64,000 bases of DNA from Pseudovirgaria hyperparasitica (taxonomy: Eukaryota), in NCBI GenBank assembly GCA_010093815.1, contig ML996579.1; one strand, 5' to 3'. Positions 1 through 33,767 of the stretch are shown in pieces. A model generated the notes under the pieces. That model had not been told where the DNA came from and did not search any database. It was given only the letters and a program-made list of their open reading frames with translations. How positions within the stretch are numbered: position 1 is the stretch's first letter; every line of letters begins with the position of its first letter. The translations under genes and the position numbers were made by a program.

Positions 1-1919
1 GAAAACCCTTAAAGACTTAATTAAATCTACCTAGAATTCCGATATATTAGTAAAGAAAGTTATAAGCATGAAAGGAAGCGCTATAGATCCGCCGTGGTTA
101 TTAAGGTAGGAACGACGATTAGACGCGATCTACTTCTAAGGCCAACTCTACGTGCCGGAAGGCGGCTTACAAATTAATGTTTTAAGGGAATAGCATGATT
201 ACGCGTTAGTAGGGTACTTTAGCGTTATAAGGATAGTTAATTTAATCCGAAGGACGTACGACTGGCCGGGTCTTTATAAATATATAAAAGACTACGTAAA
301 AACGTATAACGTTTACCAGCATACGAAAGTATATAGATACTTACTATATGGCGAATTAAGGCCATTACCTATGCTAAAGGAGGCATAGAAGGAATTATCG
401 ATAGATTTCATCACAGATCTACCCCTAAGTAAGTGTTCTAGGTATATTTATAATAGTTTACTCGTAGTTCTAGATAGATTTATAAAGATATTATACTACA
501 TCTCTATAAGGAAGACAATCTAAGCACCGGATCTTATAGATATACTACTCCGTGACGTAGTCCGGCTCTATGGTATACCGAACGGTATAGTTTCGGATAG
601 AGGTCCGTAGATAACGTCTAAATTTTAGAAGGATTTCTACTATATACTAGGAATTAAGCGGAAACTTAGTACTACGTTCCACCTATAAATAGATAGATAG
701 ATAGAGCGGTAGAATTAGATAGTCGAGGCGTATTTACGCGTATATTATAACTATAAGTAGGATAACTAGGTAAGGTTAGTCTGTGTCGCGGAATTCGCGT
801 ATAATAACAGCCGATATACGTTAACCCACGTAAGTCCGTTTAAAGTAAACTTCGGTCGGAACCATAATGCGTAGTTCTTAGGGACTTAGTTTAAAGTAGA
901 ACGATCTAATATTAAAGTAATAGAAATTACTATAGAACTATTCTAAACGTAAAGAAGCGTTATAAAGTTACTATAAGATACTACAAATTATAGTAAATCG
1001 CACTATAATAAGGGTAGAAAACCCATAATCTTTAATATTAGGGATAAAGTTTTACTAAATAGTAAGAATATTTATAGTATTAGGCTAAAGAAGAAGCTTA
1101 ACTATACGATAATAGGTCTATATAAGATTACTTATATAATTAATGACTAGGCGTACGAGTTATAACTCCCTCCTACGTTAAAGATATATAATATATTCTA
1201 TATTACGCTTCTCGAGCCATTTCATGCCTTATTATTACTAGATCGTTCCGAATAGATACTATATAAAGTAGTTACGTAAGAAGGTATAGATATCTACGAA
1301 GTTAAGTAGATACTTAGCTAGTAACGCGCCGAAGATGGCACGTGGCTATATAAAATTCGTTAGAAAGGATATAATCCTAACGAAGATACTTGGGAATCTA
1401 TAATAAACATTAGTAAAGTAGCGATGTTAGTATATGAGTAGCGATTAGTAAAGAAAGCCGCGGAATCATAGAGAATTATACCAAAGTACGGCGATTCGAC
1501 GTTTTTTAGTATAGTTTAGCACCGAGGACGGCCGCCTAAAAGGAAGAAGGTAAAAGAGATATAGATCTTTAAAACATTCTAAGGAATTAAGGAACTTCCT
1601 TAGAAAGTTCGAACTTAGAACTTTAAAAATTTAACTAAAAAAGAGACTTAGAAAAATAATTCACTAAGAGAAATAGACATCGAAAATCGGTACCGATCGG
1701 TATAGATCGGTATAGATTACTAAAGAGATTAAAGAAGTTATTATTAAAGAAAGATAAAATTAAGAAAGCTAAAAGAAAATATAAAGATCTATATAGATCT
1801 ATATAAACTCGCACTAATCTATCTAGAAGAAGCAAGATCGCTTTAAAATTAAAACCGAAAAACCAAAAACGCTAGATAAAAGAGACATGTTAGTACCGAT
1901 CGGTATAGATCTAAACCGA

Positions 1920-2901
1920 TTAAGTCGGAGTAGGAGTAGAAGTACTAATTACCGCGATAGTTATATCTAATTCCTTCTGCTAGTTCTTATTTAGTATAGT
2001 GTAGAGCTTTATAATATAAGTCTCTAGCCTTTCGTTCCGATACTATAAATTCTATATAGCGTGCCTTATAGCTATGAACTCCTCTATAGAAACCTATAGA
2101 GCGGCGGGACCCGGGACGGAGAGAGACGGACTAGCGCGGGTACGCTAAGAATTATATAAATTAGCGAAAAGATTCAATAATCGGTATAGAACCATATACC
2201 TTTAGTATAGAAACTTCTAGATTAGAGCTATCTTCCCTAAATTTATAGCTCTTTAGCACGCGCGAGGAAGGAACCTTAGCCTTTTTACTAGAACCTTTTC
2301 TAGGAATTCTAATATCGCCGGTGTATAGAAAGAAGTCCGAAGTAGTAGAGATTTTAGCACTATTATAGAGATTAATATATATTAGTAAGAATCTATAACG
2401 ATTTAAGAAAAACGATGTTACCTAGTAATCGCGGTAATAATAGCTATAGTAGATTCCGATAAATCCTTACGGATCTTATTAGAATCGTACTCCTAGGCGT
2501 AACCCTTACCTTAGATATATAGCTCGTAGAAAGCCTTCTCTAAGGCGTTACGATCGGTAGTACTACGCTCCTTATTAGTAGAGGTTACTAGAGGCCTAGT
2601 AGTAATCTATACTAATATAAGTAAATCTACGTAAAGTTCTTCGAACTTACTTAAATACCTATAAGTAATAACGCTTCTTAGTTATATAAGTACTATATAT
2701 TATAGATTTAGTACTACCGTAAGTAATATATAACGGAAAGCGATAACTATAATAATATATAGCTAGATTATTAGAGCCCGGCCTAGGTTGGGGTAGATTA
2801 ATAGCTTTTAACATGTCGGTGACGTATACGAGACAGGGATTATTCGAAGGCATCTATTTCCGCGCCGATTACTTTAGAGTATTGAGATTTCGGGAAACCA
2901 T
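1920..2901 (-). pseudogene. Antisense 4-exon accessory gene inside Gypsy A copy 1 (~270 aa; Cys-rich N-terminus, coiled-coil-like C-terminus), RIP-mutated
   Basis: ATG at 2901. GT-AG introns 2658-2607, 2421-2360 and 2199-2145 (the last two with ctaat branch sites) keep one frame to TAA at 1920-1922. Internal stops are TAG/TAA explicable as RIP'd CAG/CAA/TGG. Confidence 0.65.
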
Positions 2902-3385
2902 ATTAAGATTATTATTAATTTATACGGATTATTACGAATTATATTATTACTAGCTAAGGACGGCACGAAAATTAGTAAATTACGTAAATCATACTAAATT
3001 ATAGTAAATCTATATAAATCTATATCTATAAGGATCGGGTGATATACCTAATAATCTAAAAAACTCTATAAAGAGTTAAGAAGTTTTTTAAAGAAAGGAA
3101 TATTTCTAAGAAAAGATTTCAATATAGGTAGTACCCAGGCTTACCTAATTACATCACGTGATACGCTAGGCCTAATTAGATAATCTCACCTATATAAGAA
3201 GTTAAGATAGATAAAATCTAGTTTATTAGGAAAACGCTTATATAAATCTTAGATTAGTAAATATCGGTAAGTATCTAAGACGAAGCGTAGAGAACGACTA
3301 AGGTCTTACGAGACTTAGGATAGGGATATAGAGATAGGTAACGATCTAGGTCGCTAAGGGTAGCTTCCTAGAGGGAAGGGATAAT

Positions 3386-3613
3386 TATTAGAACTTAGTC
3401 TTAGGTAGAACCCGATCTACACGTACCTTAGCTAATAGGGATAGGAGGTAACGTGAAGGGCGGTAAACAGTCACGTGCTAGATAGATCGGCGTCCCTTTA
3501 TATATATACTCTCGGATTCCTACTAAAAGGGTTCGGTAGTAATTCGTTCTATGATAGAATACACCCTATTATTCTATCTAACTACACTACTATCCAATAA
3601 CCCTATTCTTACA
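3386..3613 (+). repeat. 3' LTR of Gypsy A copy 1 (228 bp)
   Basis: TA(<TG)...CA ends; matches LTRs at 19297-19524 and 33768-33995. Confidence 0.95.
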
Positions 3614-5148
3614 CTACCTTTAGTAAGATTTACCTTTAACTCCTTAAGAATCTTAAAGAATAGTAATAAACTATAACTCTTAACGAGGGAGTTCTACCTT
3701 ACGTTAAGCGATACTCCTTTTATCTTAATCCGGAGTTACTTTTTATATATAAAGTTAGTCTAGATAGCTATGAACGCTTATGTATTCTATACTAATTTAT
3801 ACGTGATTTTATAGACTAGGCCTATACTAAAGGCGGACATTAAGGTACTAACGATATATACATTCGTCTATAGTAAAATCTATTTATTCTAAAGCTTAGA
3901 GATTATATATAAGGCTATATAAACTAATACCCTACTTATAGTATCTCTAAAGCGTCGAATAGATAGCCGATTAGAGAATTAATACTAGTAGTTACGCCTC
4001 TAATACTATTCTATATAATCTTAATAGATTTTATCGTGGGATTACTAACGACCGTTAATAGCTATAATTAATACCTTACGGTCACCGATAAATTCACTAA
4101 GGGAGTTAAGCTTATACCCGGAAAAGACACTTAGACTACGTAGAAATAGGCCGTTGGTTTTTATAACTATATAGTCGCTAGTTAGACTATACCTAAAGTT
4201 ATTATCTCTAATTATAATTTCTATTTCCTTAGCTAATTCTAGCGAGTACTATTTAAGATTATAAGGGTTATTATAGTAGTTACGGCCGCTTATAACTCTA
4301 AAGTAAATAGATAGAGCGAACGGACTAATCTAACCGTTAAAATAATCCTCTAATACTTAATTATTAAAGAGAATAAGAATATTACTAAATAGAATAAATT
4401 ACTACTAGTAGTGGAATACACGTTATTAATAACGACAAGCTCTATAATAAATAAAACTCTATTCGAGCTCATGTACAGCGTGCGTCTAAGGGATCTAATA
4501 ATAGTAATAATACTATTCTAACTATTAAACGAAAATAAGCAATCCGTGGAGAATTTTACTCTATCTTACTAAGATATCTATAACTAAGCCGAAGAAGCTA
4601 TTACCGTCGCTTAGGCTAAGATAGTAATATTCTTCGATAATTAATATAGTAAGGTTAATATAGGCGACTAAGTCTAGCTAAAAGTTACTCGTAAGCCTAG
4701 CGCTAAAGGGTACTAATTACCCTCTATATCTTACCTTAATCTAGAGAAAGTTAGCCTATATAAAGTTCTTAAAAAGGTTACTTAAGTTACCTTCCGGCTT
4801 AAACTTTCTAAGTACGTTAAGATTTACCCCGTTATTTTAATTACTTATCTAGAGCCTTACACACCCGATACCCTTAATAGATTAATCCGTAACCTAGGTC
4901 CTATTAAGAAGATTAAGGGTAAGGCCGCCTATATTATTAATCGTATACTAGCTTAAGGATCTCGACGCCCTAAAGGAGAAACTAAAGTAGTATCTTACCT
5001 TAAAGTTATATAGAAAGGCTATAATAAACTAGACTAGGTATACGAATCGGATCTACTACGCGACGTGCTAGAAATAGTAGCTACCTTTAATACGCGTAAG
5101 CGTCTAAGGAAATCATATACTAGCTAGATAATCCTCTCTAAGATTTAA
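3614..5148 (+). pseudogene. Gypsy B pol C-terminus (integrase plus chromodomain)
   Basis: HHCC-like and DDE core motifs are readable after RIP correction. Confidence 0.85.
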
Positions 5149-5411
5149 TGTATTTCTATATTTTATAAGTTTACTTTATAATGTTTTTACTTTCTATTTA
5201 TATATAAATCTATCTAATTAATTACGTAATAGTTATACTAATTTAGGCGAGTATAGCGAATATTAGTCCCGTTAAGCTACCCTATTATCTTATTACCTTA
5301 GCTATAGTTACTCTAGCTCTATTAACTACCACTTCCTTTAGATGTCTTAGTATTAAACTTAACTTTTACTTCTTTCTATTCTTATTTACTCTAATATATA
5401 ATATCTCTAAT

Positions 5412-8400
5412 ATATCTTCTACCGACTAAATAGCCGAAGAACACGAAGGCGCGAAACCTTTTATTACGAACGACGATAAATAGATCTACGAATCTAATAA
5501 AAGTTAGAATAAGACTATAAATATTAATAATAGAGCTATAACTATCGATTCTACTACGATTCCTAACTATACTTCTAATAATAGTACTCCTTAAGTTACT
5601 ACTATAGTAGACGAACCGCTACTCTTTACTACTATTATAGATAATTACCGTCTAAACGATAAGTACGAAGTTACTAGAATTCGACCTTTAAAGGTACTAG
5701 TTCCTAATTACTTTCTATATTAAGTCTCTCTAACGTAGAACGACCTTTAGCTTATATTCGCCGACCTCTATAACGCTATTATTATTAGTAAGGAAATATC
5801 TAAGTAAATATAGGCCGAAATTAAAGAAGTAGCCTTTAAAGTACGTGGTAAAGGGTATAGTTTTAAATAATTAATCTCTTATTCTTATAAGGTACTTGAT
5901 TTTCCTAAATATCGCTCTAAGATTACCCTAAGATACCGCTTCCGTTAGATTAATAATAGAAAATCGGTCTTAATAGTATATATCTTATAGTTAAATCGAA
6001 TTAATATTCTTCTCTCTTCCACGGAGCCTATAGTATAGATTTCTAAAGTTAACTAAGTTAGCGACATCGTTGGTTTCTTTCCCTAGCTTCCCGAACTTAT
6101 TATTAAGAAATATAAAAGAACTAAGCTCTTAAACATTATTAAAGAATAGAATTTTAAGCTCTATAGCTTCTAGGTAATCTATTTTACTATTAACGAACTT
6201 CTCGGTAGTAGTTTTACTACGCCTACTTTTATTAGGCTAGATAATACTTATAAGTAAGTTAAATAATACTTTAGGAACCTTAAGTCCCCTACTATAATAC
6301 GAATCTTATATACTCTTAAAGAGGTAAAGGATTTCACGCGTTTTAACGTAGAGCTAGAGCTTAAAAAGGATCCGATTAGCGCATGGTATATAGATATTAC
6401 TATATCTTATATATAATACGGAATAATAAGTAAACCGGACATATAGCCGTAAGTCGTAGTTCCTCTTCGTGAATCCTTTAATTAGAAATTTAATTACTTA
6501 ATATATATTAGTATTAGCTCGCTCTAAGATAAGTAAGCTAAGCTACCTTCTACGGAATTCTTACTAGTTATAGTTAGATACGTCTAGCTCTTAGGCGTTA
6601 CCTAATCTCTTCTAGCTATTATTAAGCTAGATAATCTAGACGAGTTCTATTAAATAGAACTAGGGATAAATACTTTTCTAAAAGTTAATGTATTAGCGTA
6701 TAATAATAACGTCTACCGAGCCGAGATTCTCTAACTTTGATCTAGAGTACTTCCTTTTAAATGCTTCGCGTTAAAACTTACTAACCTTATTAAACGTCCT
6801 CTAAAGGAACCGGAGCTCCTAGTACCTTTACTACGTACTATCGCGGTAGTATATAAAAAGTACTTAGGTTACTTTATCTACACGAGTAATATTAGCTTAG
6901 AATCTATTAATTCATCTATTACTACGCTAGGTAACTTTAATGAAGTTCCTACTCTCGTCTTAATATAAACATATAATAAGCTTATTAAGTAATAGATAAA
7001 TACTTATTAAAAACTAACGTAATCTACGTTATAAGCGCCTACTATTAAAGTAATAAACTAATAAATAAAAGAAGATAAACTACCTTAAAAGAAAGTTAGT
7101 AAGTATAACGAAGTAGATAACGTGTCTAAGGTAAGCATGGATTTAGTTTAAGATAACGATAGCGAGGACGACGAAGACTATCCCTTATCCGCTACTAATA
7201 GTAACGAGAAAAACGAGTTTTAGTTACCTTCGGCTAGTATAATCCCTACTATAGTACTATTACCTTTACTATTAACTATTTAGAATATTATTCTAGGTAA
7301 TAACTTCCTTACTCTCGAATACCTTAATTATATATAATACGTTAAAGATTAAAGGCCTTTTCACAATATTTAAAACTTTATTAAGAAATAGCTATCTAAT
7401 TAATAATAGGAAGTATACGAAAACTTACGAAAGGTACTAGAAGGTTATTTTATACTTTAAGGCCTAGGAGATACTAGTAAGAGTTATTAGTAGCTTTATA
7501 TTATATTATCTATAATATTAATTAATAAGAATAGTAGTAATTTCATAATAACCTACGTAGCTAAGACTATTATTCTAATTACTAAATAAACTATATACCT
7601 TCTAGCACGATTAGTAATATAGACGCGTCGACATTATTTATACCTTATAGTCTATCTAACTAATCTAACTTACGATAATACTACCGCTAAAGTATATATA
7701 TTTATTAAAGTCTAGATCTAACGGGTAAAATCTCCTAAGTTACTAATAGTAATTCGTCGTTATCTAGAAGATATAGACTATAGAATCTTCCTTACTAGGG
7801 CTAAGAAGTAAAGATATAGTAAACCCTTAATTAGTATAGAATAGGATAAAGCTATTAGTAGTATAATACTATTATAGGCTTAGAGAGAATATAATAAACG
7901 GCTATCTAAGTTTATATCTAACCTATATACATGCTTATAGAAACTATATACTAGTTATATAGCTCTTAAAGTTATTAGGCTAGTTACTTCCTATTACTAA
8001 TATAAATAGCTTCTATCTAGTTTTAAAAAAGATACTACTAAGCCTCTCTAAAATCTTTACTATTACTATAGTAGAAAGGAAGATTTTATATTAGAAGACC
8101 ATAAGCGTATAATAGAACTATATAATATAGTTTAGGACCTTATTACCACTTAAGCTTAGATATATATAGATACGCCCTATATTATAAATATTACTAAAAT
8201 TACTTATAATATCTACCCGATTCTAGTAGTTATAGAAGAGGTAACTCATACGCTAGAGAGCGATATACTTAGAGTTATCGTGAATTATATAATAATAGAC
8301 TAGTAGCCGATATTTATTTATATTAGAGATTCTCGCTAGCTAGATACCTACTATACTAATAACCTTAATATATAGACTATAAACTAAGGAATCTCGTTAA

Positions 8401-9629
8401 TAAAACGACTTCTATAATACGGTTTCCCTTCTACTCGCCTTACGGAGTTAGAACGGTCTATTCTAAGTATTATTAATGTTATTTTAAATATCGCATATTT
8501 AGGCGAACTAATAGCTTCTCCTTATATAGCGGCGAACGTTAATTTCTACCTTACTAAGGCGGTTTAAAAGATATTTTATCTTTCTAGATATTAATATATA
8601 ATTATCGTAGTAGTTAACGGAGATCGAGCCTTTACTATTAATAGTTCTAAATATAATTTAGACTCTCTATATTTCACTTAGTAGGTAATTATAGAGCTCT
8701 TTCTCTAAGACGTAAGCCTCGATTATATTTTATATATTTATATCTACGCCGCCTAATAAGAGTTATTTAAGACTATAGTTCGTACCTTACTTCCGGAAGT
8801 CCTAGCTAACACGGATTAAGCTTATTTTAATAGATTATCTAAAAAGGTATAGTAACTTATCTAATAGCGATCCTAGGATAGATTCTAAGGCTATAATAGT
8901 AATATTATTCTTATCGATCCCGTTTAGACTAGCCGTATTAGATTCCTTATAGAGCTAAATTAGAATATTATCTCTATTACGCGCGTAAGGTAAGTTATAA
9001 TAGTTATTATAAATATTCTATCCCTTAAGCGATAAAAATGCCTCTAAGGTATTCTCCGTAAGCTTTAGAAGAAATATTATAAGTAAAAAGTAGTATATAT
9101 ATATAATACTACTATACTAGGAACTCTTTCTACTCTCTAATATATACTAAATCTAACACGTAGCCATTCTACTTTCGGTATTAGAGAAACACGCGAAGGA
9201 AGATAGAAACGTAAGTAGAGAAGGTCTATAACCTATCGTATCTATAACGCTATCGGTTATAAAGTAATCGACTACCTAGAAGGAACACCTCTTATCTATA
9301 ATAACTATTAAGATATTAGTTATAAATCTAAAGATTATTCTAATCCTAAGACTTTATAGTTACTCTACTACTATAGTTATAAATAGAATAGTTACTTCTA
9401 GTACTACTATTCTAATTATACTAAACTTATAGCTCGTTCTACTAAGGAAGACACTCTATCCGCTACTAAAGTAGAAGAAGTTCTTAACGCCGGCGCTTTT
9501 ACTACTAAAGTAGAAGCTACGCTAGAATAGAACTTATAGGACGATATAAATGAATACAGAGATTCTTTCGTTAAGGATAAGAAATTAATATAGACTACTT
9601 ATAAGACTTATAACACGGTTAACTAGTAG
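5412..9629 (+). pseudogene. Upf1/NAM7-like superfamily-1 helicase with three C-terminal CCHC zinc knuckles (RIP-mutated, ~1,400 codons)
   Basis: All motifs lie in one frame after RIP correction: Walker A LQGPG(G/D)TGKS 7455-7484; Ia VCPTNxACDN 7650-7679; II VVxEEA 8226-8243; III GDSRQL 8325-8342; V DGFQG 8877-8891; VI GFL..SITRAR 8940-8990; CX2CX4HX4C three times from 9234 to ~9410. Confidence 0.85.
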
Positions 9630-9671
9630 GTAATTTACATTTCGGGACGAAATTTAGCGTGGAAGGGCAGA

Positions 9672-9892
9672 TGCTATAGGTAGTTATATAAGGTTATATA
9701 AGTAGCTAAGTCACGTGGTCTAGTCACATAACGCTAGAAGCTTAGTATATATTACTTCTTCTTTCTATATTATTTATAGTTAGAGATGGGAGGAGGAAGA
9801 CGAATAACTGTATTAGCACCTAATTAAAGACTCATTAAGAGTATCTCCATCTCCTTTGCTCTATTATAGACCCTTCGGTAGATAATATAGCA
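9672..9892 (+). repeat. Putative 3' LTR of Gypsy B (221 bp)
   Basis: Begins TGCTATA and ends TATAGCA (7-bp terminal inverted repeat, TG...CA), directly after a purine tract. The partner LTR would lie outside the window. Confidence 0.75.
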
Positions 9893-12800
9893 CCCTCTGA
9901 GTACTGCACTCGGCAACCAGTCTGTCTCTCTAGGATCGACTTCCAAGGACTTCTATTAATTGCCAGAATGACCTGTAGACCTAATTAGCTTTCAAAGCCT
10001 TGCAGATCTCGCGATTGAGAACTCGAAAGAGTTAAGACAATATTTGACAACCGTAACGCGATGTTACGAGGGTAATACAGTAGACATACATGCTACGCAG
10101 AAATCAAAAGTACGAACAATAGTTTAGAGCTCAGCATATCGATGAGACAGCATTATTGAAGGACGTTGTGAAGCGAGGAGGAAGTCAGGAGAACAGCTGA
10201 AGTTAGGCCTTTCATCCATCTATCGCGGCATGCCTAAGGCGCCCAGTACATTAACCTCCCTCCTTTAAGTCATGGGCTGTCTCAGGATGCTTTCACTTTG
10301 GTCTTTTGAAGCAGGTCTCGACAATCAAATGAAGTTTAGCCTGCTGATGTTCTCAGATGAGCGAATATTCTACAAATGAGAGATGCGGATCACTGACTGA
10401 AGCCCCTCAAGCAACTGTGCACCCATGAACCTGCTACCTCTGTTCAGCAACGAATTATCTGACGCCTAAACCAACGCTGTAGTATAGGAGGACTAGACGT
10501 TACTCTGAGACGGACGTTTTCGGGATTGCTAAGCGAGAGTTCTGTTCAAGGGCAGATACTGGTGTTAGGGACTAGACTTGCACTGCCTTGCGGTTTGCCT
10601 GATCAGGCACACCGCAGCGAATCGAGGTCACTATATCTAAGGCCACCCGAGAAGCCGCTTCTAATGGACCTGTTTGGTAGATGACTGCTGGTCTTGGTGG
10701 AGTGGCGCAGACAAAAGCCGGTATATACCAAGGTATGATCGTGTTGACAAGAATTGTGCTTTACCGCCCAGTCTTGACTCTTCACTGCATTTAAGATCCC
10801 ATTCAGGGGCACGAGTTATCTTCGCCTCATGCTCATACTCCACCATGCCTTTCAAACAGTGCTTGAAATATCTCTTCACGCACAGTGAGAAGTATCTGAA
10901 TGATGAGCCACCCCGATACTCAGCTATGGAGTACCAGCAGCTTTGCGACGAACATGAACATATGGCTCCTGTGTTACCCCAGCGCTTCAAGGTTTGTACC
11001 ACCTTGTCCAATGTGAACGAAAATTAATGATCGAAGACTCCATCACTCCATCCTGCCCGCACTCAATCTCCGGAGCTACCCTTTCGAACTTTGTTGAACG
11101 ACACAAACCCTGCAGCTCCTACCGCCGTCTCATCCTGTCCTATGCCAACACGCGATACCAAGATCCAACATTCTGCAGCTCCCCTCAGTACGGGAGGTTC
11201 AACAGCGAGTTGGGACGACTCGGCGACTCTGGCATTGCAGAAGGAAGCTGAGGTCTTCGAGCCCCCTCACCCCTTGCAGAGTCTCATGAAGATATACCAA
11301 AGCCGTTGAGTTGGAAGAAGCTGGCGAGAAAGAGTACAGATGTCGAGGATATATCTACGAAAGAGGACGACACATGATGTGGATACAATTCAATGCCAGT
11401 AGAAGCACATAATTACATGGCAACTATGCGTAGAGTCGACACTTGTGCGAAATTTAATCGTATCATAGTTTTGTATGTATAAGTATCCAAGTTTCAGTCG
11501 GAGGGAAATAAGTAGCGCTTCCTTCGGATCCCAGATCATGCAAGGACACGTCTTCAGATTCACCCAAAACTCTGTTGGCAATTTGATAACTACGCTGCTT
11601 GGAGGCTGTTAAAAGCTAAATAGGCGTCTTGATATAGGTATTCATAGATCTGGAAACATAATAATCCGACTCCAAAGATTTTATTTCGTCAAGCACTGGG
11701 GTTACGTACTCAAAGAGATCACTGAGTACTCTACTAGCTACAGGAGAGAACATATTCTTAAGTCAGGAAGCTGTTCAAGGAGAGTTTTGATTCAACCACT
11801 TGGGAGTTAATCATCAAGCGAACCTTACCCTGGAAGTCTATTTATGTGAATAAGAGGTATCCGGATGTCAAGGAATCCTGAGACCCTCTCTTGACTACTA
11901 AAAGACTCGGCGGATGAAGGCTTGTTAACGGCTTGTGAATCACATTATACTATTGTATGCGTAGATCCTTGGGCTCTTAAGATACTTCGGGTACTGCTCA
12001 GGACACTGCCTATCATGAATTCTTGGGTGGATATATCTAGGAACCTACAGATCCTCCATTGCCTATAACCATTGTCAGTAGATAAGTGACGCACATTGAA
12101 AGGAATCTATTATCCCACCTTCACTGTTATGCAGTAATCATGAGCGTATGAAGAAGTTCAGTTCGCTTCAAGTGCTACAATTTGTTCATTTTTTGACTCC
12201 GCCAGTCAGTCTAGGGCCTTGGGTCCGTTGGCTATCCGCCGTACCCTGTTGGCCATATCTTGGTGGTGTGCGTACGCAACAGAGCCTTTCAGCTGCTCCT
12301 AACGCCTTACATCCTGATTGACTGACTGGTTGGCTTCTAAGTGCTCCTTTGGTGCCGTCTTTGGCTGATTTCGGTTGGTGAAGAGCGGTGTTGACCTTCT
12401 TTTGACCCCGTGGAAAGGGTACCCAGCAGCGGTGAATCGCATCGCCGTAGAATGCATACAGGGTTTGAAGGAGACGGCGAGGTCTCCAGCCGGCTTATCT
12501 CCTGAAGACTGTCGAGGAGGGGCTGATGATTTTGGACGAGTCTTCATGCCCAGAAGGGCGCAGATCTGGCAGTGAACGGTAATTGGAGGGATCTGCCTCT
12601 ATCGGGTCAGGGGTGAGCTCACGTGGTGGGGGAGGAGTGGTAAGACGCTCAACCAACATTGGCTCTGGCTTCACGGAGCGTGCGTGCTAAATCTGTTGAG
12701 ACTCGAGTTCCATAGGTCGTAGTATGAATGTCGTGAAGTCGTCGAACTCCAGAAGTTGTGATCGTTAGAGAATCGAAGGTACACGAGAGTTCAAGTTACG

Positions 12801-13987
12801 ATTTGATTGATAAAGTTTTGTGAAGCAATGGAGAACTAATTCAGTAAAAAAAAACATGATACTCTGGTCAACCTCGTGAGAATAGAAAGATGAAGTTAGA
12901 CTTACTATGAGGGAGTTGTTAAACTCTATGCTAAAAAAGAAAAAGATTTGAGAGTCTACTTCGTGAAGAGTCAAAGTCGTTTAAGACATCATGCGCCGTG
13001 ACAACTAGCGTTTGCTCCACTCCAAGTCTCAGACCTTCCATCGCGACATCACGAGTAGATCGGGATTCGCTAAGATAAGGAAACATGATAGGACAGACTA
13101 TTACACTACTGGCAGCGTGTTGAATCCAGAATGGAGCTAAGAATAAGGATTGTTTTTGGCTCGATAGGTGTCTATTTGTAAATATATTCTGTAACGTACC
13201 CAGTAGTTTCCCGGCTTCGGAGAGGGATACGGCTTGGAAGTTTCTCCCCTCTGTCTTCTAATATAGTACTTAGGCTCCTCCGTCTCCACTCACCTACTCG
13301 GTTTGACACATCGTTATATCATGCGCCTAAGTGCCTAGATAATCAGCAAAAGGCTCTAGAAACGTGACACATGGTATGGTCATACGAAGTAAGACATCTC
13401 AAGTAGACCAGGGGAGACTAATACTTGTTGTTCATCCCTGTTTATCGTGGACGGAATGTTGAGGTGGATCCGTTGCGGAGGCCCTTATGCATTGGAAGAT
13501 CTCCGAATTTGTCATGTTATTTTCCACTACTTGTGGTTCACAGTTCGCTTGATTCTATCCCAATCATCATGTTCGCGTTCTTTATATACTCGGCCAGGAT
13601 CTATAGATGGTACTATTGGTAGTTCATGCAATGAAATGACCACAATGTAGTATGCCGCTCTAAGTACATTATTACAGCTGCCTTCACTCTTACGTCTCGA
13701 AACTTATGTATTAATCGTCTGAAGGCTATTGGAAGGTCTGTAAGATCCGATGCTAGCGATTATCGACGAACTAGGTACCATAATCGGCTTGTAAACTTTG
13801 TGCATCCTGACACGACGAAGGCTACAAGCGTTGAAACTTGAGAGAAGAAATAAGGGTTCTTGAGAGGAAGATGTTCGAGAGAAAATCAGACGGTTAAGCA
13901 AGGCTACTAACTTCACTTAATCTTTTAGTAATAGATGGTGTCAAGGTCCTAAAGGTACAAATCATACAGTAGAGGGCATATCTCTCC

Positions 13988-14450
13988 ATCCGTATATCAA
14001 TTTTTCAGCGCGATTCTTGGCACGGGTCGCGCGCGTAACATAACTCCCTTTCTTATATTCTTAAACTTTATATCTTCTTTAATCCGATATCTCTGGAACT
14101 AGAATTCTAGAAAGTTCTTTAGTTGTATCTAAATATACTTTAACATAGACTCTTACGCTTTATATAAGAAAATAAGAAAATATAAGTAGATAGAAATATT
14201 ATTCTAAGAGAATATATATTAATAGATGTTATAGAGAAGAGAAGAAGAAAGATATCTTATTTAAGACTCTTTAGACTTTGAATTTATATAATAAGTATTC
14301 TTAAGATATAGATATAACTATATTAGACTTTTTAAGTATCTTCTATTTATAAAATATTAAAGAAAATATAAGTTTTAAATATACAAGGAAAAGTATATTT
14401 ACGCACGTGACGTGTACCAAGAGTGGCGTTTAAAAAGTTATCTAGATTGA
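13988..14450. mobile_element. MITE-like element (degenerate copy of the 36398-36904 family)
   Basis: Ends tttttcagcgcgattcttggcacgggtcgcgcgcgtaac and ttacgcacgtgacgtgtaccaagagtggcgtttaaaaag resemble the TIRs at 36398/36904; AT-rich core. Confidence 0.75.
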
Positions 14451-15737: not shown

Positions 15738-16080
15738 CTCGATTTTCGCCCATTTAAGTTAATATATTAAATTTTACCACGTCTACGTCCATATATCTAT
15801 ATAGTCTATCTCTATATTAGCTAAATCGTTTAAATCCGTAGAGAAACTCACGAGTATACTTTTACATTAGCCTTACGTAAGTATACCGTCCGTGATAAGG
15901 TTATATACATGCTCGATTTTTGCCTATTTAAGTTAATATATTAAATTTTACTATATCCACGTCCGTATATCTATATAGTCTATCTCTATATTAGCTAAAT
16001 CGTTCGAATCCGTAGAGAAACTTACGAGTATACTTTTACGTTAGCCTTACGTAATCTTCTAGTCCGTAATAAGGTTATAT
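15738..16080. repeat. 174-bp tandem duplication in the hAT subterminal region
   Basis: Unit starting ctcgatttt(c/t)gcc(c/t)atttaagttaatatattaaatttta occurs at 15738 and 15912. Confidence 0.9.
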
Positions 16081-18640: not shown

Positions 18641-19296
18641 GATAGTAAATACTTTAAAAATATAAGGCTTAGAATAATAGCTAGAATAGACTAGACGTAG
18701 AGAGACTAGTATAGGTTACTATTAGCTAACGGACTATCCTTAGTAGGTAGTCCCCTAAACTTAATATCTAAAAATACTACTCTATATATATATATATACT
18801 ATATATAACTTTAGTTTAACTTAACTATTAGTAACTTAATCCTACCCTAGAATTAAATTAGACTAAAGATCTAACTCTTAGTAAGAGGCCTTAGTTGAAC
18901 TAGACTAAGTTAATTCTAGAGAGGTAGAATTGAAGTTGGACTAATTGATAGGAACTCTACTATTGATATCGGTATCTACATATGAGTTTCCACTTACAGT
19001 TGATCTATTCTTACGCTAGAGGTAATCATTAATCTAAGAGTACACGAATCCTACCTTACGTTAGTAAGTTACTAATGGTATCACGAACTATGTATTTCGT
19101 ACCATTAAGGATTTAGGATAGGCATAATATAGAAGTTAAATTTATCTACAATAGCTTTCACTATAGAATCGCTAGCGTAGCGTGTTAAAAGCTAGTATAC
19201 CATGTGTTTAACGGTCTAAGACAAAGTTAGTAAGATCGAATCTTTCATACTAAGTCGATGTATTATTGTAGTAATCTACTCGTAAGCATGAACTAT

Positions 19297-19524
19297 TGTT
19301 AGAACTTAGCCTTAGGTAGGACCTAACCTATATATACCTTAGCTAATAGGGTTAGGAGGTAACGTAAAGGGCGGTAAATAGTTACGTGCTAGATAGATCG
19401 GCGTCCCTTTATATATATACTCTTAGATTTCTACCGAAAGGGTTCGGTAGTAATTTATTCTATAATAGAATATACTCTATTATTCTATCTAACTATACTA
19501 CTATCTAATAACCCTATTCTTATA
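19297..19524 (+). repeat. 5' LTR of Gypsy A copy 2
   Basis: TG start, preceded by TSD actat. Confidence 0.95.
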
Positions 19525-20752
19525 TTCGAATTACTCCCTATATAGTACTATAGTTAAGATAGTCTAACTAGAACCAAGAAGGTCGACACGATCTACTATA
19601 GGGATAAGTAATACTATATTAAATAATAGAGATTCTCTATAATTAGTATTAATCCTAGCCGTTTCTAACTAAGAAGTAGAAATATTAGACTAAATCACGG
19701 AGCTTTTAGACGAAGAAATAGTAGATACACTAAGTAACTTCTAATAATATAAAGCCGGATAATAAGTCGTGGCGGAGCCATATAAGGTATTATAATAAAC
19801 TATCGCTAAACTTTAGGAATACGTCGCGAATTAGACTCGAGAGATTTAAACCCTTAAAGAATAGATAGAACGCGCGAAACTCCTCGTAAAGAGACGAGAA
19901 CTTAAGAAGTCTCTTAAAGAACTATGCCGAACGATAGTAGGTAGATAACTTCCTATACTAATTTAGGCGGAATTAGTTTACCTACTATTAGAGTTACGAT
20001 AATCTACTATATACCTAGCCGCTTCGTTACCGATTTACTCTACTTCTTCCCTAGATATACCGAAACCTAAAGACCTAACTATATTTATAGGGAAGAACTA
20101 AAAGGAGTAGAAAGACTAGAAGAAAGACTATAAAAAGTACTTCCTCGATAACCCTCTACTCTTTTCTACTAAAGTATAACGCATTTCGTTTAGAGAACGA
20201 TACCTAGGATTATAATTCCACGATTAATAGGATAGATAGAAGGAAGTATAGCTACTATCTACGATAACCTAGAAATATTTAGCTATATTTATACTAAATA
20301 CCCTCGGAACGGATAGAGAACGTGAAAGAAAGGCACTATCTAAGTTAAGAAGCGTAGTATAACGACCGAACTAGACACCTACTTAACTACTATAATACCT
20401 CTAAAACCTATAGAATAATATCCCTATACTATAGAAAAATATTCGTATATTCTAGTTTCGCGAAGTACTACTTCTATTAATCCGCGAAAGACTAGGAATA
20501 GTATTATTAAGTTTTAACTATCTATATAAATTAGAGGAGAAAGCTAATAAATACTACCGTATCCTTAAGGAACGCGGCTCTCTAGGTAAAACCGACGAAC
20601 CCTATACGGGTTAGAAACGAGGTCGATTAAATACGTTCGATTAAGAGTAACCTTACCGCGATTAGCGCTAGAAGAGCGTAAATTAGGGTAGAAACGCGTT
20701 AAGAGAATACTAATATAATTAAGGCGGTACTTCTTAACACGGAAAAGGATAA

Positions 20753-22167
20753 TAATAATAATATTATATAACTAGGTAGAGTAGTACTCTATAGGCCTAT
20801 GCCTCCTCTAGTCTAAGCTACTATATAAGAAGAAACCTAAGAGGGGAAAACTTCCTTATGTCGATAATTACATCTCGTTAAACCTTTATTTCTTCTTAAG
20901 TATATAGCTATAGGGTACACCTATTAGCCTATAGCCTATATTACCGTTATTTTACCCTTAGGTAGCACGTGTAGGTGCGGAGGTTATTAGTTAAGGGGTT
21001 CTTCCGGCATATACCGGGTTTCCTCCGATATATACCGGGTTTCTTCTAGTATATATTTCCGGGTCTACTAGAATTAGAGGAGTAGTAGATATATAATTAT
21101 CTACCGGGCGATATTCTTAGGGTACTTATTAAGCTATCGTACGATATTAGAGGTTCTTATTATATAGATAAGCTTCTACCTTTACGTGTGAAGATCGGGG
21201 TATATTACGAGATAGTAGCGTATTATATCTCTCTAGCCGTACGCCTTATACCATAGAGACATGTTAGGGACGCCTCTCTTATAGAGGTAGTATAGAAGTC
21301 CTATAGCGCCCGTTCGGGCTTAGAGGAGTATAGATGCCTAGGCCTTTATAAGCCCTTTATATATCTATTTACTCGGCTCCTTCTATGGTCCTCGGATCTA
21401 CTCTAGGTACCTATTCTACTAGGAGGCCTACTAGGCCCGGAGTGTCTCTTTCTACTTATCTTAGATCTATAACCGTATACTTCGTCCGAGCTCTTAAAGG
21501 CTCTATTAGTCTAGAAGAGTATCTAGGTTATTCTTAATCTCTTATACTACTTAGTTTAAGTCTATTTCTATCGGGCACTTATACCGTAGTCGAGTCCGGC
21601 CTATATATAAGAGTACTTAGTAGTATACGCTAACTCGCGCGCGTAGCGCGGCGAAGATATATTCTATATTTTCTATATATTTCTATACTTATTATTTAGT
21701 AAAGTATACTACCCTCTATGTCTAGTAGAAGTCCTATATACTTATTATATTTATCTCGCGTCGTAGTAGCGCTATAGTAGTAGCTTTATATATACTAGAG
21801 ATAAGACGGAGTATACGGTTTTATATGGATTCGAGCTTCGTTCGCCTAGCCTATATAAGGGCTATATACTAGTACTCGTGTCCGTATATAAAGGCTAGTC
21901 GTGCTATAGAGATATATAGTTAGCGTGCCTTATCCTAGGCGGTTCCCTATATAGAGGCCGTAATCCGGCGTATAGCGGCTTCTACCTAGAGGGCCCTAGA
22001 AACGGCGTATACTACCTATGGTCCCTATTTAAGCTTATTATCGATCATGACACCGAGTACGCGTATACTTTGTATCGGCGGTTCGTTAAAGGCGTCTATT
22101 CTAGGGCGTCGCTCGCCTTCCCTAGTAGCCCATTTCCCACGGCGGTTAATGAAGTACATGAGTTGGT
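20753..22167 (-). mobile_element. 5'-truncated copy of the Tad1-like LINE inserted in Gypsy A gag
   Basis: Reverse complement matches ~30830-32285 including the (ATT)n tail. TSD acacggaaaaggat(aa) at 20737-20752 and 22168-22183. Confidence 0.93.
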
Positions 22168-25100
22168 ACACGGAAAAGGATAAGATATAGACTTAAATAT
22201 AATACCTATTATAAAATAGTAGGATTATAGTATACTTCGTTACTATAAGTATAGAGAAATAGAATATATTTCATCTAACTATAAGAATCCGAAAAAAGAA
22301 TAGGCTAGTATACGAGACCTAACCGCGTTCTTAGCTAAATTATATATACTTAGGAGAAGCCGTAGCGCCTTCCGGTAAGTAAAGACCTAATATTACTAAA
22401 AGTATTATTACCTATAGTAAATAGTAATAAAACTATATAGGCCCTCGTAGATACTAGTATAGAAGATAACTATATTTCATTAATTCTTATAAAGGAGTAT
22501 AGATTATCGTACGATCTCGGTAAAGTTAGCTAAACTATTATAGTTAATAGATATAAAGTTAGAACTTTAGGTAAAGCTATAATAAATTACGAAGTTTATA
22601 ACTCGAAGATAATAAAATAGTAGATGTCTAATAAATTTATCGTAGCTAATATTAGCTAATAGAATATGATTCTAGGGATGCCTTAGCTTAGACGTCTAAA
22701 CCCTATCCTTAATTTTTAGAAGGAGATATTAACGTTCCGATAATACCGTGGTAAATTATACTAGTAAGTCATAACTATTAGTAAGGAGGCATGGAACCTT
22801 ACCGTGCGGACCCGATTATCGCTAATCTATCTTACGTCCTTATCGATTATTAATAAAGATAAGGATAATAGTAATAATCGGGGTAAAGACACGCTATCTA
22901 ACGTATATTCGTAGTATACGGATGTATTTTCGGTAGGAGATATATTACTTCTCCCTAATCACGGGCTATATAAGCTAAAGATCGAGCTTAAAGAGGGAGT
23001 AGACGTCTCTTATAGTCTACTTTACCTACTTTTAAGACTAGAACTCGAAGTTCTTCGTAAATATATTAAAGAATACCTTAAAAGAGGCTAGATATATTAT
23101 AGTATATTATTGGCTAGCGTACCTATTCTCTTCGTAAAGAAGAAAGACGGAAGTTTACGTCTATATATTAACTATTAGATACTAAATATAGTAACTAAGA
23201 AGAATCATCACCTATTACCGCTAGTTAATAAATCTTTAGACTAATTAATAAAGGTAAAGTACTTTACGAAGCTAGATTTATAAGATATATATTACCGGCT
23301 TCGAATTCATCGCGGAGGAAAGTAGAAAACCGCATTTCGGACTAGATATAGTTATTTTAAGTATACTATTATACTATTCGGGCTAATAAATGCGCTAGGA
23401 GCGTTTTAAGGATATATTAATACTATACTCGTAGGATTACTTAACGTGATTTACGTAGTTTATCTTAATAATATACTAATTTACTCCGATAGTATATAGA
23501 ATTATAAAGAACACGTGAAATTAGTGCTAAATCGTCTAAGGTAGTATAAACTCTACGTAAAATTATCTAAATGCGAGTTTTACTAATAAGAAGTTAGGTT
23601 TCTCGGCTTTATTATAATATATAGCGGCCTAAAAATAGAGCTAGAGCGTATAAAGACTATTATGGAATAGCTAGAACCTACTACTATACGTTAAATTAGA
23701 ATATTTATAGGTTTCGTGAACTATTATTATAAATTCATTATAGGCTTCTTACGAATTATAGCGCCGCTTAATAAACTTATAGAGAATAGTAGTAAAATCT
23801 CTATAGGTAGGCGAGTATAGTATAAAGCTAAGTTAGTCGAGATATAGTTAATACCGGAAGCGTAAGATACGTTCTAATCGTTAAAGAATTACTTTATAAC
23901 TACGCCGATTCTTAGGTATTTTAATTCTAAGAAGTATATTCGGGTTAAAACTAACGCGTTAGAATTCGTAATTACTAGAATTATTAGTTAACTATATAAA
24001 GATATAAAAGATAAGGTATAATAGCACCCGGTCGCTTTCTTTTCCTATAAAATGGCGGATATAGAGACGCGTTATAATATATACGACTAGGAACTACTTA
24101 TAATCGTTAAGAGTTTTAAGTAATAGTAATATTATTTAGAAGGCTCTATATATTAGATCGAATTATTATCGGATTACGTAAATCTATATTACTTTATATT
24201 AACTAAGGTCCTTAATCGCTAATAAGTACGTTAGGCTAAGTAGATATTAATATTTAACTTTAAAATCTTATATAAAGCTAGAAGAGAGAATAAAGCTAAT
24301 CCTCTATTGCGGTATAAAGATTATAAGAAATCGTTATAGAATAATATAGATAGTCGGTATAAGTTAGACTATACTATACTTTAGATACTATAAGACTAGT
24401 TATCTAATAGAATACTAGAAGCTAGGGTACTTTCGGCGATTCTCCGCGGGAATTAGAGCGGGTATTAAGTAATCTAAATAAATATCTAAGAAACTAAGAA
24501 AACCCTCGAAGACTTAATTAAATCTACCTAGAATTCTAATATATTAGTAAAGAAAGTTATAAGTATAAAAGGAAGCGCTATAGATCCGCCGTAGTTATTA
24601 AGGTAGGAACGATAATTAGATATAATCTACTTCTAAGGCCGACTCTACGTGCCGGAAGACGGCTTACGAATTAATATTTTAAGGGAATAGCACGATTACG
24701 CGTTAGTAGGGTACTTTAGTATTATAAGGACGGTTAATTTAATCTAAAGAACGTACGACTAGCTGGGTCTTTATAAATATATAAAAGACTATATAAAAAC
24801 GTGTAACGTTTACTAGTATACGAAAGTATATAGATACTTACTATATAGTAAATTAAGGCTATTACCTATACTAAAGGAGGTATAGAAGGAATTATCGATG
24901 GATTTTATTATAGATCTACCTCTAAGTAAGTATTCTAGGTATATTTATAATAGTTTACTTATAGTTCTAGATAGATTTACGAAGATATTATACTATATCC
25001 CTATAAGAAAGATAATCTAAGTACCGGATCTTATAGATATACTACTCCGTGACGTAGTCTAGCTCTATAGTATACTAAATAGTATAGTTTCGGATAGAGG

Positions 25101-26416
25101 TCCGTAGATAACGTCTAAACTTTAGAAGGATTTCTACTATATACTAGGAATTAAGCGGAAACTTAGTACTACGTTCTATCTATAAATAGATAGGTAGACG
25201 GAGCGGTAGAATTAGATAGTCGAGGCGTATTTACGTGTATATTATAACTATAAGTAGAATAACTAGATAAGGTTAGTCTATATCGCGGAATTCGCGTATA
25301 ATAATAGCCGATATATATTAACCTACGTAAGTCTATTCGAAGTAAACTTCGGTTAGAACTATAATATATAGTTCTTAGGGACTTAGTTTAAAGTAGAACG
25401 ACCTAACGTTAAAGTAATAGAAATTACTATAGAACTATTCTAAACGTAAAGAAGCGTTATAAAGTTACTATAAGATACTACGAATTATAGTAAATCATAC
25501 TATAATAAGGGTAGAAAACCTATAATCTTTAATATTAGGGATAAAGTTTTACTAAATAGTAAGAATATTTATAGTATTAGGCTAAAGAAGAAGCTTAACT
25601 ATATAATAATAGGTCTATATAAGATTACTCGTGTAATTAATAACTAGGTATACGAGTTATAACTCCCTCCTACGTTAAAGATATATAATATATTCTATAT
25701 TACGCTTCTCGAGCTATTTTATACCTTATTATTACCGGATTATTCTAAATAGATACTATATAAAGTAGTTACGTAAGAAGGTATAGATATCTATAAAGTT
25801 AAGTAGATACTTAGCTAGTAACGCGCCGAAGATAGTATATAGCTATATAAAATTTATTAGAAAGAATATAATCCTAACAAAGATACTTAGGAACCTATAA
25901 TAAATATTAGTAAAGTAGCGATATTAGTATATAAGTAGCGATTAGTAAAGGAAGCCGCGGAATCGTAGAGAATTATACTAAAGTACGGCGATTTAACGTT
26001 TTTTAGTATAGTTTAGCGCTAAGAACGGCCGTCTAAAAGAAAGAAGGTAAAAGAGATATAGATCTTTAAAATATTCTAAGGAATTAAGGAACTTCCTTAG
26101 AAAGTTCGAACTTAGAACTTTAAAAATTTAACTAAAAAAGAGACTTAGAAAAATAATTTACTAAGAGAAATAGACATTAAAAATCGGTGCCGATCGGTAT
26201 AGATTAGTATAGATTACTAAAGAGATTAAAGAAGTTATTATTAAAGAAAGATAAAATTAAGAAAGCTAAAAGAAAATATAAAGATCTATATAGATCTATA
26301 TAAACTTATACTAATCTATCTAGAAGAAGTAAGATCGCTTTAAAATTAAAACTAAAAAACTAAAAACGCTAGATAAAAGAGATATATTAGTACTAATTAG
26401 TATAGATCTAAACTAA

Positions 26417-32285: not shown

Positions 32286-32301
32286 TATAGATCTAAACTA
32301 A

Positions 32302-33283
32302 TTAAGTCGGAGTAGAAGTAGAAGTACTAATTACCGCGATAGTTATATCTAATTCCTTCCGCTAGTTCTTATTTAGCATAGTATAGAGCTTTATAATATA
32401 AGTCTCTAGCCTTTCGTTCCGACGCTATAAATTCTATATAGCGCGCCTTATAGCTATAAACTCCTCTATAGAAATCTATAGAGTAGCGGGACCTAGGATA
32501 GAGAGGGACGGACTAGCGTAGACACGCTAAGAATTATATAAATTAGCGAAAAGATTTAACGATTAGTATAGAACTATATACCTTTAGTATAGAAACTTCT
32601 AGATTAGAGCTATCTTCCCTAAATTTACGGCTCTTTAGCACGCGTAGGAAAGGAACCTTAGTCTTTTTACTAGAATCTTTTCTAGGAATTTTAATATTAC
32701 TAGTATATAGAAAGAAGTCCGAAGTAGTAGAGATTTTAGTACTATTATAGAGATTAATATATATTAGTAAGAATCTATAACGATTTAAGAAAAACGATAT
32801 TACCTAGTAATCACGGTAATAATAACTATAGTAGATTCTAATAAATCCTTACGGATCTTATTAGAATCGTACTTCTAGGCGTAACCCTTACCTTAGATAT
32901 ATAGCTCGTAGAAAGCCTTCTCTAAGGCGTTACGATCGGTAGTACTATACTCCTTATTAGTAGAGGTTACTAGAGGCCTAGTAGTAATCTATACTAATAT
33001 AAGTAAATCTATATAAAGTTCTTTAAACTTACTTAAATACCTATAAGTAATAACGCTTCTTAGTTATATAAGTACTATATATTATAGATTTAGTACCACC
33101 ATAAGTAATATACGATAGAAAGTAATAACTATAATAATATATAGCTAGATTATTAGAGCCCGGCCTAGGTCGGGATAGATTAATAGCTTTTAATATATTA
33201 GTAACGTATACGAGATAGGGATTATTTAAAGGCGTCTATTTCTATACTAATTACTTTAGAGTATCGAGATTTTAGGAAACTAT
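32302..33283 (-). pseudogene. Antisense accessory gene, copy in Gypsy A copy 2
   Basis: Colinear (offset 30382) with 1920-2901; start codon RIP'd. Confidence 0.6.
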
Positions 33284-33767
33284 ATTATAATTATTATTAA
33301 TTTATATGGATTATTACGAATTATATTATTACTAGCTAAGGATAGTACGAAAATTAGTAAATTACGTAAATTATACTAAATTATAGTAAATCTATATAAA
33401 TCTATATCTATAAGGATCGGGTAATATACCTAATAATCTAAAAAACTCTATAAAGAGTTAAGAAGTTTTTTAAAGAAAGGAATATTTCTAAGAAAAGATT
33501 TTAATATAGGTAGTACCCGGGCTTATCTAATTATATTACGTAATACGCTAGGCCTAATTAGGTAATCTTACCTATATAAGAAGTTAAGATAGATAAAATC
33601 CAGTTTATTAGGAAAACGCTTATATAAATCTTAGATTAGTAAATATTAGTAAGTATCTAAGACGAAGCGTAGAGAATAACTAAGGTCTTATAAGACTTAG
33701 GATAGGGATATAGAGATAGGTAACGATCTAGGTCGCTAAGGGTAGCTTCCTAGAGGGAAGGGATAAT

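Follow-up and report, generated by a model that had tools for sequence, protein, structure and literature searches.

Described here is a Gypsy-type retrotransposon, called element B, that is found in part within a 64,000-nucleotide stretch of DNA ('the window') from Pseudovirgaria hyperparasitica (GenBank assembly GCA_010093815.1, contig ML996579.1). Between the end of this element's pol gene and a polypurine tract (PPT) with its long terminal repeat (LTR) there lies, on the sense strand and in one frame throughout 6312–9410, an Upf1-like helicase that is followed by three CCHC zinc knuckles. A helicase gene is an unusual cargo for a Gypsy-type element. The simplest reading, and to us one more probable than not, is that element B carried this helicase-knuckle open reading frame (ORF) as internal cargo, that is, as a sequence which was copied along with the element.

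The ORF as presently found has been broken by repeat-induced point mutation (RIP), i.e., the C-to-T and G-to-A mutation of fungal repeats, the reversal of which is modeled here as changes of TpA to CpA or instead to TpG. Read from 5412, the frame contains 106 stops in 1406 codons, all of them TAA or TAG except for one TGA at 6738, and TpA reversal reverts every stop but that TGA. RIP is the cause of these stops. Across 5001–9000 the ratio TpA/ApT is 1.53–1.83 and (CpA+TpG)/(ApC+GpT) is 0.09–0.16, both of which indicate heavy RIP, the thresholds for RIP being above ~0.89 for the first index and below ~1.03 for the second. The same indices across 10001–13000 are 0.83–0.86 and 1.11–1.26, i.e., non-RIP values, with composition normal from 10001 onward. 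The number of stops cannot single out the helicase frame, as minus frame 1 has 103, and no stop-to-stop ORF exceeding 75 aa occurs within 5412–9629. The first-pass annotation of this DNA had posited just such a frame, ~4.2 kb in length, on the sense strand, broken by RIP, and located between the pol end and the PPT and LTR; stops, their reversal, and position all bear this out.

Searches were undertaken using an 'X-read', that is, a frame translation in which an X is placed at each stop. With phmmer, the X-read of 6030–9629 gave five matches at E<=1e-3 (range 2.7e-7 to 9.1e-4) among 1.84 billion (1.84e9) representative proteins, and AAA_11 together with AAA_12 is present in all five. As to labels, one is a Phyllosticta 'P-loop NTPase' (P0007), another is a 'hypothetical protein', and three are unnamed. 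A hidden Markov model (HMM) of these five proteins, as applied to a six-frame X-read of the whole window, recognized chunks solely of frame +3, at E-values of 7.9e-22 and 3.2e-20, all others being at E>=4.1. The identification as an Upf1-like SF1 helicase, as had been made from motifs, is sustained by those two results. RIP-aware alignment of the helicase frame with three of the proteins (P0004, P0006, and P0007) scored 237–255 half-bits versus 38–65 for other frames and for reversed targets, while plain scoring, i.e., without reversal, resulted in 125–169 versus 33–47 for controls. Over a whole-window scan consisting of 258 chunk-by-frame tests, the helicase locus alone stands out, at 231 and 225, the next-highest score being 56.7 and the median 37. 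Scoring as a maximum over possible ancestors had been abandoned, as controls were inflated to 520–630, and was replaced by the probability-weighted version that was employed here.

Other searches returned little. No helicase or knuckle family was seen in Pfam at E<=1 using the raw X-read, whether of the three plus frames or of all six frames of 1–14000. A PDB sequence search with the raw helicase core similarly found nothing at E<=1. Searching by tblastn with the relatives yields short matches only because alignments break at stops, and a word-based search with P0004 found three distant proteins only. No relative came from a P0004 locus search in metagenomes, nor from a search of viral contigs using the five-protein alignment. 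When it is the core of P0004 that is compared with solved structures, the best match is Upf1/Nam7 (E 7e-38), after which rank Sen1, SMUBP2, Aquarius, ZNFX1, and DNA2 in that order. Atlas look-alikes of the helicase relatives are mostly Ascomycota AAA_11/AAA_12 clusters. To judge from these likenesses, the closest relatives are a poorly known group of ascomycete helicases, with Upf1, Sen1, and ZNFX1 themselves more distant.

Within the core, 545 positions align with P0007 residues 557–1114, of which 116 are identical as read and 185 with RIP reverted, and 485 align with P0004 residues 492–996, of which 107 and 172, respectively, are identical. Identity to relatives is at most ~35%, that is, even with all compatible RIP changes reverted. 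The second domain recognized by the HMM spans 7602–9096. Motifs I, Ia, II, III, V, and VI occur in order and in one frame following TpA reversal (Table 1), and indeed every helicase motif that had been listed previously was recovered, in that order and in that frame, under the same reversal to CpA or TpG. Motif II reads Glu-Glu (GAA GAG, 8235–8240) where the relatives have Asp-Glu. As RIP-type transitions cannot yield Glu-Glu, this difference predates RIP.

Ahead of the core is a weaker likeness, to an N-terminal domain that P0004 and P0006 have in common (E 4e-17) and to which no Pfam family corresponds. The first domain recognized by the HMM, nt 6294–6537, falls here, with an i-Evalue of 0.12. 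N-terminal domain and core are colinear with those of P0004 and P0006. Every recognizable part, which is to say the 3.1 kb of 6312–9410, lies in a single frame.

The three CX2CX4HX4C knuckles that had been described as following the helicase were recovered as well, all within 60 codons of one another. As the sequence now reads, Tyr is found at 12 of 12 ligand positions, with Cys or His there only after RIP reversal, and the residue ahead of each knuckle's His either is G already or becomes G upon reversal. RIP-compatible CX2CX4HX4C matches are infrequent, numbering eight in the 127,998 codons of the window's six frames, three of which are these knuckles. When the codons of the 164-codon tail were shuffled 20,000 times, a single match arose in 618 shuffles, two matches in six, and three in none. 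No zf-CCHC Pfam match is seen on the raw reading, and a knuckle is found in none of the five helicase relatives. Zinc knuckles are a hallmark of retroelements, and their absence from those relatives suggests a chimaera that was made in a retroelement setting.

Table 1. Features of elements A and B, positions being those of the window.
Feature	Position	Strand	Basis or remarks
3' part of Gypsy element A, nested into element B	1..3613	+	Pfam on frame +2 X-read plus repeat copies
pol 3' end of Gypsy element B (integrase zinc-binding domain, core, SH3, chromodomain)	3614..5127	+	frame +1; interrupted at 3613/3614 by element A
Spacer after pol, possibly start of third ORF	5128..5411	+	frame +3 ATGs at 5148, 5181
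RIP-degraded third ORF, bounds of first-pass annotation	5412..9629	+	frame +3; start/stop positions approximate
Weak likeness to N-terminal domain of P0004 (residues 232-453) and P0006	6312..7016	+	RIP-aware 87.5 vs controls 32-65
Upf1-like SF1 helicase core (AAA_11/AAA_12 type)	7230..9137	+	alignment; motifs I, Ia, II, III, V, VI
Walker A	7461-7484	+	GLGDTSKS -> GPGDTGKS
Motif Ia	7656-7679	+	TpA reversal
Motif II	8226-8243	+	VVIEEV -> VVIEEA
Motif III	8322-8342	+	IRDSR*L -> GDSRQL
SLMKRL	8394-8411	+	SLIKRL -> SLMKRL
Motif V	8877-8897	+	TpA reversal
Motif VI	8934-8990	+	TpA reversal
Three CX2CX4HX4C zinc knuckles	9234-9275, 9297-9338, 9369-9410	+	helicase frame, RIP reversal
Polypurine tract, GGAAGGGCAGA	9661..9671	+	sequence reading
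LTR-like terminal repeat, 221 bp, TGCTATA...TATAGCA	9672..9892	+	perfect 7-bp inverted ends; RIP composition ends 9892/9893

To the left of the ORF, the X-read of 3616–5148 matches P0012 (E 3.3e-33) and P0013 (E 2.6e-32), both of them Gypsy pol proteins. RIP-aware alignment places nt 3709–5094 on residues 1690–2139 of the 2143 of P0012, with a score of 545, the aligned span extending from the integrase zinc-binding domain through the final residues of the chromodomain. The pol frame's first stop is at 5125–5127. The claim that pol ends ahead of the ORF thus stands, although not at ~5148 as had been stated, as homology ends at 5094 and the frame itself at that stop. Element B by these alignments is a chromovirus-type Ty3/Gypsy element that has been cut at 3613/3614 by element A; it displays a Gypsy-type integrase, with reverse transcriptase and RNase H falling outside of its visible part. 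In P0012, as a separate observation, the reverse transcriptase is preceded by ~1,180 residues that match no Pfam family at E<=1 and that contain no strict CX2CX4HX4C knuckle. For these reasons the Gag of the Gypsy lineage to which P0012 belongs may lack the usual zinc knuckle.

Between pol and the ORF's earlier bound, frame +3 of the spacer has four stops in 94 codons versus 10–17 in each of the remaining five. The ATG at 5148, which is in the helicase frame, is found 21 nt past the pol stop. The spacer does not resemble the LTR of 9672–9892 (score of 47 versus a shuffle mean of 45.7 and a shuffle maximum of 58). A similarity search for an LTR remnant following pol came upon low-complexity chance matches only, and the same was the case for flanking inverted or direct repeats such as might mark the ORF as a nested insert. 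Nor does the window contain another copy of the region 3612–10000, or a second copy of the helicase.

To the right, the PPT (GGAAGGGCAGA) is found ~31 nt past the last stops of the helicase frame, standing directly before a TG...CA LTR as is characteristic of Ty3/Gypsy elements. Both had been noted before, as jointly occupying 9661–9892, and both are there, the PPT at 9661–9671 and the LTR at 9672–9892. This LTR is unlike that of element A by sequence comparison. RIP is evenly severe across 4001–9000 and its end is abrupt, coinciding with the last base of the LTR; with such an ending, a gradient of leakage from a neighboring repeat does not fit.

Additional copies were sought in contigs of two sequencing runs (X1 and X2), aligned to the window at 80% likeness. 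A search of sequencing runs had found the stretch in two runs only, neither of them an RNA run and both from one sample, which probably is the source of the window, so the contigs do not constitute independent evidence. The window's own copy is present with zero differences at a depth of 230–244. Other contigs, at depths of 170–183, are 16–21% different from the window, and the differences among the aligned contigs are mainly transitions. These diverged contigs supply three records. The first consists of 3877/3976–4529, 4603–5040, and 5151–5367, i.e., spans the pol stop and continues into the spacer, with weak joints on to ~6000. The second, 6094–6636, represents the early ORF, and the third, 8409–9414, is of the late ORF inclusive of knuckles, with joints back to ~7500. 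Summed contig depth, which is not copy number, has across 4001–9200 a ratio of 1.3–2 to that of the unique flank, the flank in X1 being at 234.8. At LTR position 9817 it is 979.8 in X1, of which 752.3 is found in three other contigs, and the ratio to the flank there is ~4.2 for X1 and 3.9 for X2. An interior at 1.3–2 times flank depth and an LTR at ~4 times is what would be expected of two elements possessing two LTRs each. These observations together suggest one further copy, 16–21% diverged, which includes pol end and spacer, early ORF, and late ORF. Joints with short sides (3593->5384, 1520->9577, and 3611->6894; sides of 23–26) are too weak to interpret. The last of these, with a short side of 26 letters, is found in one diverged contig and joins the LTR end of Gypsy A (3611) to 6894, and the second copy of the helicase ORF may as such be broken by a Gypsy A insertion near 6894.

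If the ORF is internal cargo, then 3614–9892 would be the right-hand part of a chromovirus-type Ty3/Gypsy element that was killed by RIP. Its layout would be pol (stop at 5125–5127), a short spacer, a third ORF of ~4.2–4.5 kb, and PPT plus 3' LTR (9661–9892). The product of that third ORF would have consisted of the N-terminal domain and the Upf1-like SF1 core, fused to three retroviral-type CCHC knuckles, and such a protein could have originated by the joining of a retro-copied cellular helicase gene to nucleocapsid-like knuckles. The knuckles, being absent from the cellular relatives, suggest a chimaera of this kind. As to function, the product might have bound the element's RNA via its knuckles, with ATP-driven unwinding then aiding assembly of the ribonucleoprotein (RNP) or aiding reverse transcription, or might instead have melted double-stranded RNA (dsRNA) that otherwise would feed RNA silencing. 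These roles, which are proposed by analogy, are tentative, being in our estimation on the improbable side. The first-pass annotation had suggested remodeling of the RNP, or else the countering of quelling, meiotic silencing, or nonsense-mediated decay (NMD), and these suggestions likewise are conjectural. The helicase gene may instead be a passive passenger, which is as possible as its having a function.

Internal cargo is supported by the uniformly severe RIP that ends at the LTR and by the apparent second copy. A number of points nevertheless weigh against it. The window presents only the 3' half of element B, beginning inside of the nested Gypsy A. Nowhere do pol and the helicase core occur together on one diverged contig, the continuity of the second copy resting on similar depth and similar divergence, and there being only about two internal copies leaves room for a segmental duplication. 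No relative with a pol-helicase-knuckle layout was seen. That is, neither of the two nearest pol proteins (P0012 and P0013) has a helicase, with P0012 moreover residing on a 7218-base contig that has no room for one; none of the five nearest helicases has knuckles; and Gypsy pol is seen at none of the 80 helicase loci that a three-protein alignment found in metagenomes, these loci being generic Upf1-like and of little bearing on close relatives. A literature search, to which most subscription journals and Repbase did not belong, turned up no paper on an Upf1-like helicase within an LTR element of a fungus. The Glu-Glu of motif II means also that the enzyme may have been atypical, and in-frame introns may be present in the ORF. 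Of the claim that the element had captured an RNA helicase as a third gene, what holds up is position, strand, and frame, along with the diverged contigs, but a relative of the same layout was seen in none of the collections searched. That a fungal chromoviral LTR lineage encodes its own Upf1-like RNA helicase, fused to nucleocapsid-style knuckles and as a true third gene, is to us a serious possibility but a doubtful one.

The presence of only about two internal copies could also be had were this a cellular ascomycete helicase gene that came to be flanked by a truncated piece of Gypsy on one side and by a solo LTR on the other, with the block segmentally duplicated and both copies then subjected to RIP. 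The closest proteins are indeed stand-alone, ascomycete-type genes, e.g., P0007 of Phyllosticta, the nearest Gypsy pol relatives do not have a helicase, and neither a 5' LTR nor a target-site duplication is visible in a window that begins inside of element A. Such a history would require, however, that a pol of the same strand abut the gene without an intervening LTR and that the gene end ~31 nt ahead of a PPT and LTR. It also does not provide for CCHC knuckles, which are found in 0 of 5 relatives, for an LTR depth that is about twice that of the interior, or for 3.1 kb of recognizable sequence in one frame. We view it as unlikely. Slightly less likely again is that the helicase-knuckle block is a mobile element separate from the pol of element B, that is, either a pol-less LTR element to which 9672–9892 belongs or an unknown element nested within the 3' untranslated region of B. 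The region is heavily nested (element A inside of B), the 284-nt spacer after pol has no assigned content, and within the window there is no gag or reverse transcriptase of element B by which pol might be tied to the LTR. Within 5128–6312, however, nothing marks a junction, be it another LTR, a terminal inverted repeat, or a duplication. The junction between pol and spacer, furthermore, is common to the second copy, as one diverged contig crosses the pol stop to 5367, which argues against separate elements.

It might be asked also whether helicase and knuckles are simply chance products of AT-rich, RIPped sequence that has been read over-generously. The knuckles' Cys and His, after all, and many of the motif residues, exist only upon hypothetical reversal, and the raw reading found no match in either Pfam or PDB. 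Yet phmmer, without any reversal, returned AAA_11/AAA_12 proteins exclusively (5 of 5), the HMMER E-value of 8e-22 was attained in one frame only, the plain scores of 125–169 are to be compared with 33–47, and three knuckles were seen in 0 of 20,000 shuffles. Chance we consider to be very improbable indeed. A Helitron, i.e., with Pif1-type helicase and Rep endonuclease, was considered and rejected: the strongest families of the relatives are AAA_11 and AAA_12, their best solved match is Upf1, and no Rep was found in a six-frame Pfam scan of 1–14000.

In chromoviruses the PPT and LTR usually follow close behind pol. Element B resembles chromovirus-type Ty3/Gypsy elements in that its pol C-terminus (H2C2, core, SH3, and chromodomain) aligns to the pol end, and in possessing a PPT along with a short TG...CA LTR, but differs in having ~4.5 kb, with the helicase-knuckle ORF, between pol and PPT. 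With Upf1-like SF1B helicases (Upf1/Nam7, Sen1, SMUBP2/IGHMBP2, Aquarius, ZNFX1, and DNA2) the ORF has in common the motif order I-Ia-II-III-V-VI, whereas its raw reading matches no solved member at E<=1, it has a triple CCHC, and its motif II is EE. The ascomycete AAA_11/AAA_12 proteins P0004, P0006, and P0007 are among the best and only phmmer matches to the ORF, with N-terminal domain and core colinear in the case of P0004 and P0006, but these lack knuckles and are limited in their identity as noted.

Retroviruses and LTR retrotransposons generally are described as lacking a helicase of their own and as depending on the RNA helicases of the host, certain of which, such as MOV10 and Upf1, restrict them as well. 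The element, if read correctly, would itself supply an RNA-remodeling or anti-silencing activity that otherwise is either borrowed from or inflicted by the host, and no LTR element with an Upf1-family helicase would have been known before it. An Upf1-type helicase together with nucleocapsid-like knuckles would show that an element is able to acquire a function of this sort. Insect retrotransposons provide the nearest parallel. An SF1 helicase has there been acquired by TRAS/R1 and Jockey LINEs and, in Diptera and Hymenoptera, by LTR elements (Lazareva 2015, Morozov 2017; PMC6338049, PMC5563155). The roles proposed there are RNA quality control, assistance to reverse transcription, and the unwinding of dsRNA against silencing (PMC5563155, PMC6338049). 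Element B is similar in having a full-motif SF1 helicase as an accessory module of a retroelement, to which the proposed roles could be transferred as hypotheses, while the insect helicases differ in being derived from plus-strand RNA viruses and in being fused into ORF1, ORF2, or a polyprotein. The helicase of element B instead is cellular, Upf1-like, and of AAA_11/AAA_12 type, is found in a separate ORF after pol, is accompanied by CCHC knuckles, and occurs in a fungal host. The pattern reported for SF1 helicases in retroelements (PMC5563155, PMC6338049) would be widened from insects and virus-derived helicases to fungi and helicases of cellular type. Bdelloid rotifer elements (PMC5408684) and the captured genes of rice and sorghum (PMC3726574) are similar in carrying an extra ORF or host-derived sequence inside of an LTR element, and their abstracts name no helicase-knuckle ORF. 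As the copy in the window is dead, its value lies in intact relatives, and the element would be a candidate for studying how fungal transposons handle RNA quality control and RNA silencing. In terms of method, genes ruined by RIP can be identified via X-read searches of very large libraries and by scoring that allows for TpA reversal.

Element A, which interrupts element B, displays Pfam matches on its frame +2 X-read to Integrase_H2C2 (1.7e-9), SH3_Tf2-1 (2.7e-9), Chromo (2.8e-4), and rve (3.9e-4). It is laid out as integrase and chromodomain (~170–1420), a 1.96-kb stretch without a recognized domain, and a 3' LTR (3384–3613). Other copies, ~92% identical, are found in the window at 24498–26413 and 32286–33993, and copies of the LTR at 3384–3613, 19295–19524, and 33766–33995. 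One copy, 19295–33995, with LTRs at 19295–19524 and 33766–33995, appears to be full-length but is split at 26414–32285 by a 5.9-kb RIPped insert of higher GC (~40%), within which is one RIP-compatible CCHC pattern, at 27690. The ~1.96 kb between chromodomain and 3' LTR (1421–3383, with 25918–26413 plus 32286–33765 in the second copy) has no Pfam match in any frame of 1421–3383, nor any helicase signal. In the source sample Gypsy A is present in very great abundance, at a summed contig depth of ~85,000–211,000 versus 235 in unique flank.

The window's first 10 kb, as well as 16–36.5 kb, are AT-rich (GC ~30%) with a RIP signature, while its right half consists of ordinary fungal genes, i.e., for chitin synthase, a highly reducing polyketide synthase, Stu2/TOG, MCU, and a WD40 protein. 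Because a chitin synthase exon is 72–82% identical to proteins of Pleosporales and Sordariomycetes, the host by sequence comparison is a filamentous ascomycete, and one without a close relative in the protein collection. Immediately 3' of the LTR are ~4 kb of normal composition (9893–13900; GC 43–48%), of which 9893–12000 contains no stop-to-stop ORF exceeding 120 aa and a six-frame Pfam scan of 9893–13900 gave no match. A 169-bp unit is duplicated in tandem at 15738–15906 and 15912–16080, the two copies being 89% identical. The highly reducing polyketide synthase (KS-AT-DH-MT-ER-KR; 55763–62542, minus strand) adjoins the chitin synthase, which is of class I/III type (50986–53699, plus strand), ~20 kb from the RIP block. 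Finally, a MITE-like unit of 450–500 bp, with inverted ends of ~90 bp, is present as two copies that are ~69% identical (13988–14444 and 36398–36905), one near each edge of the 16–36.5 kb RIP block.

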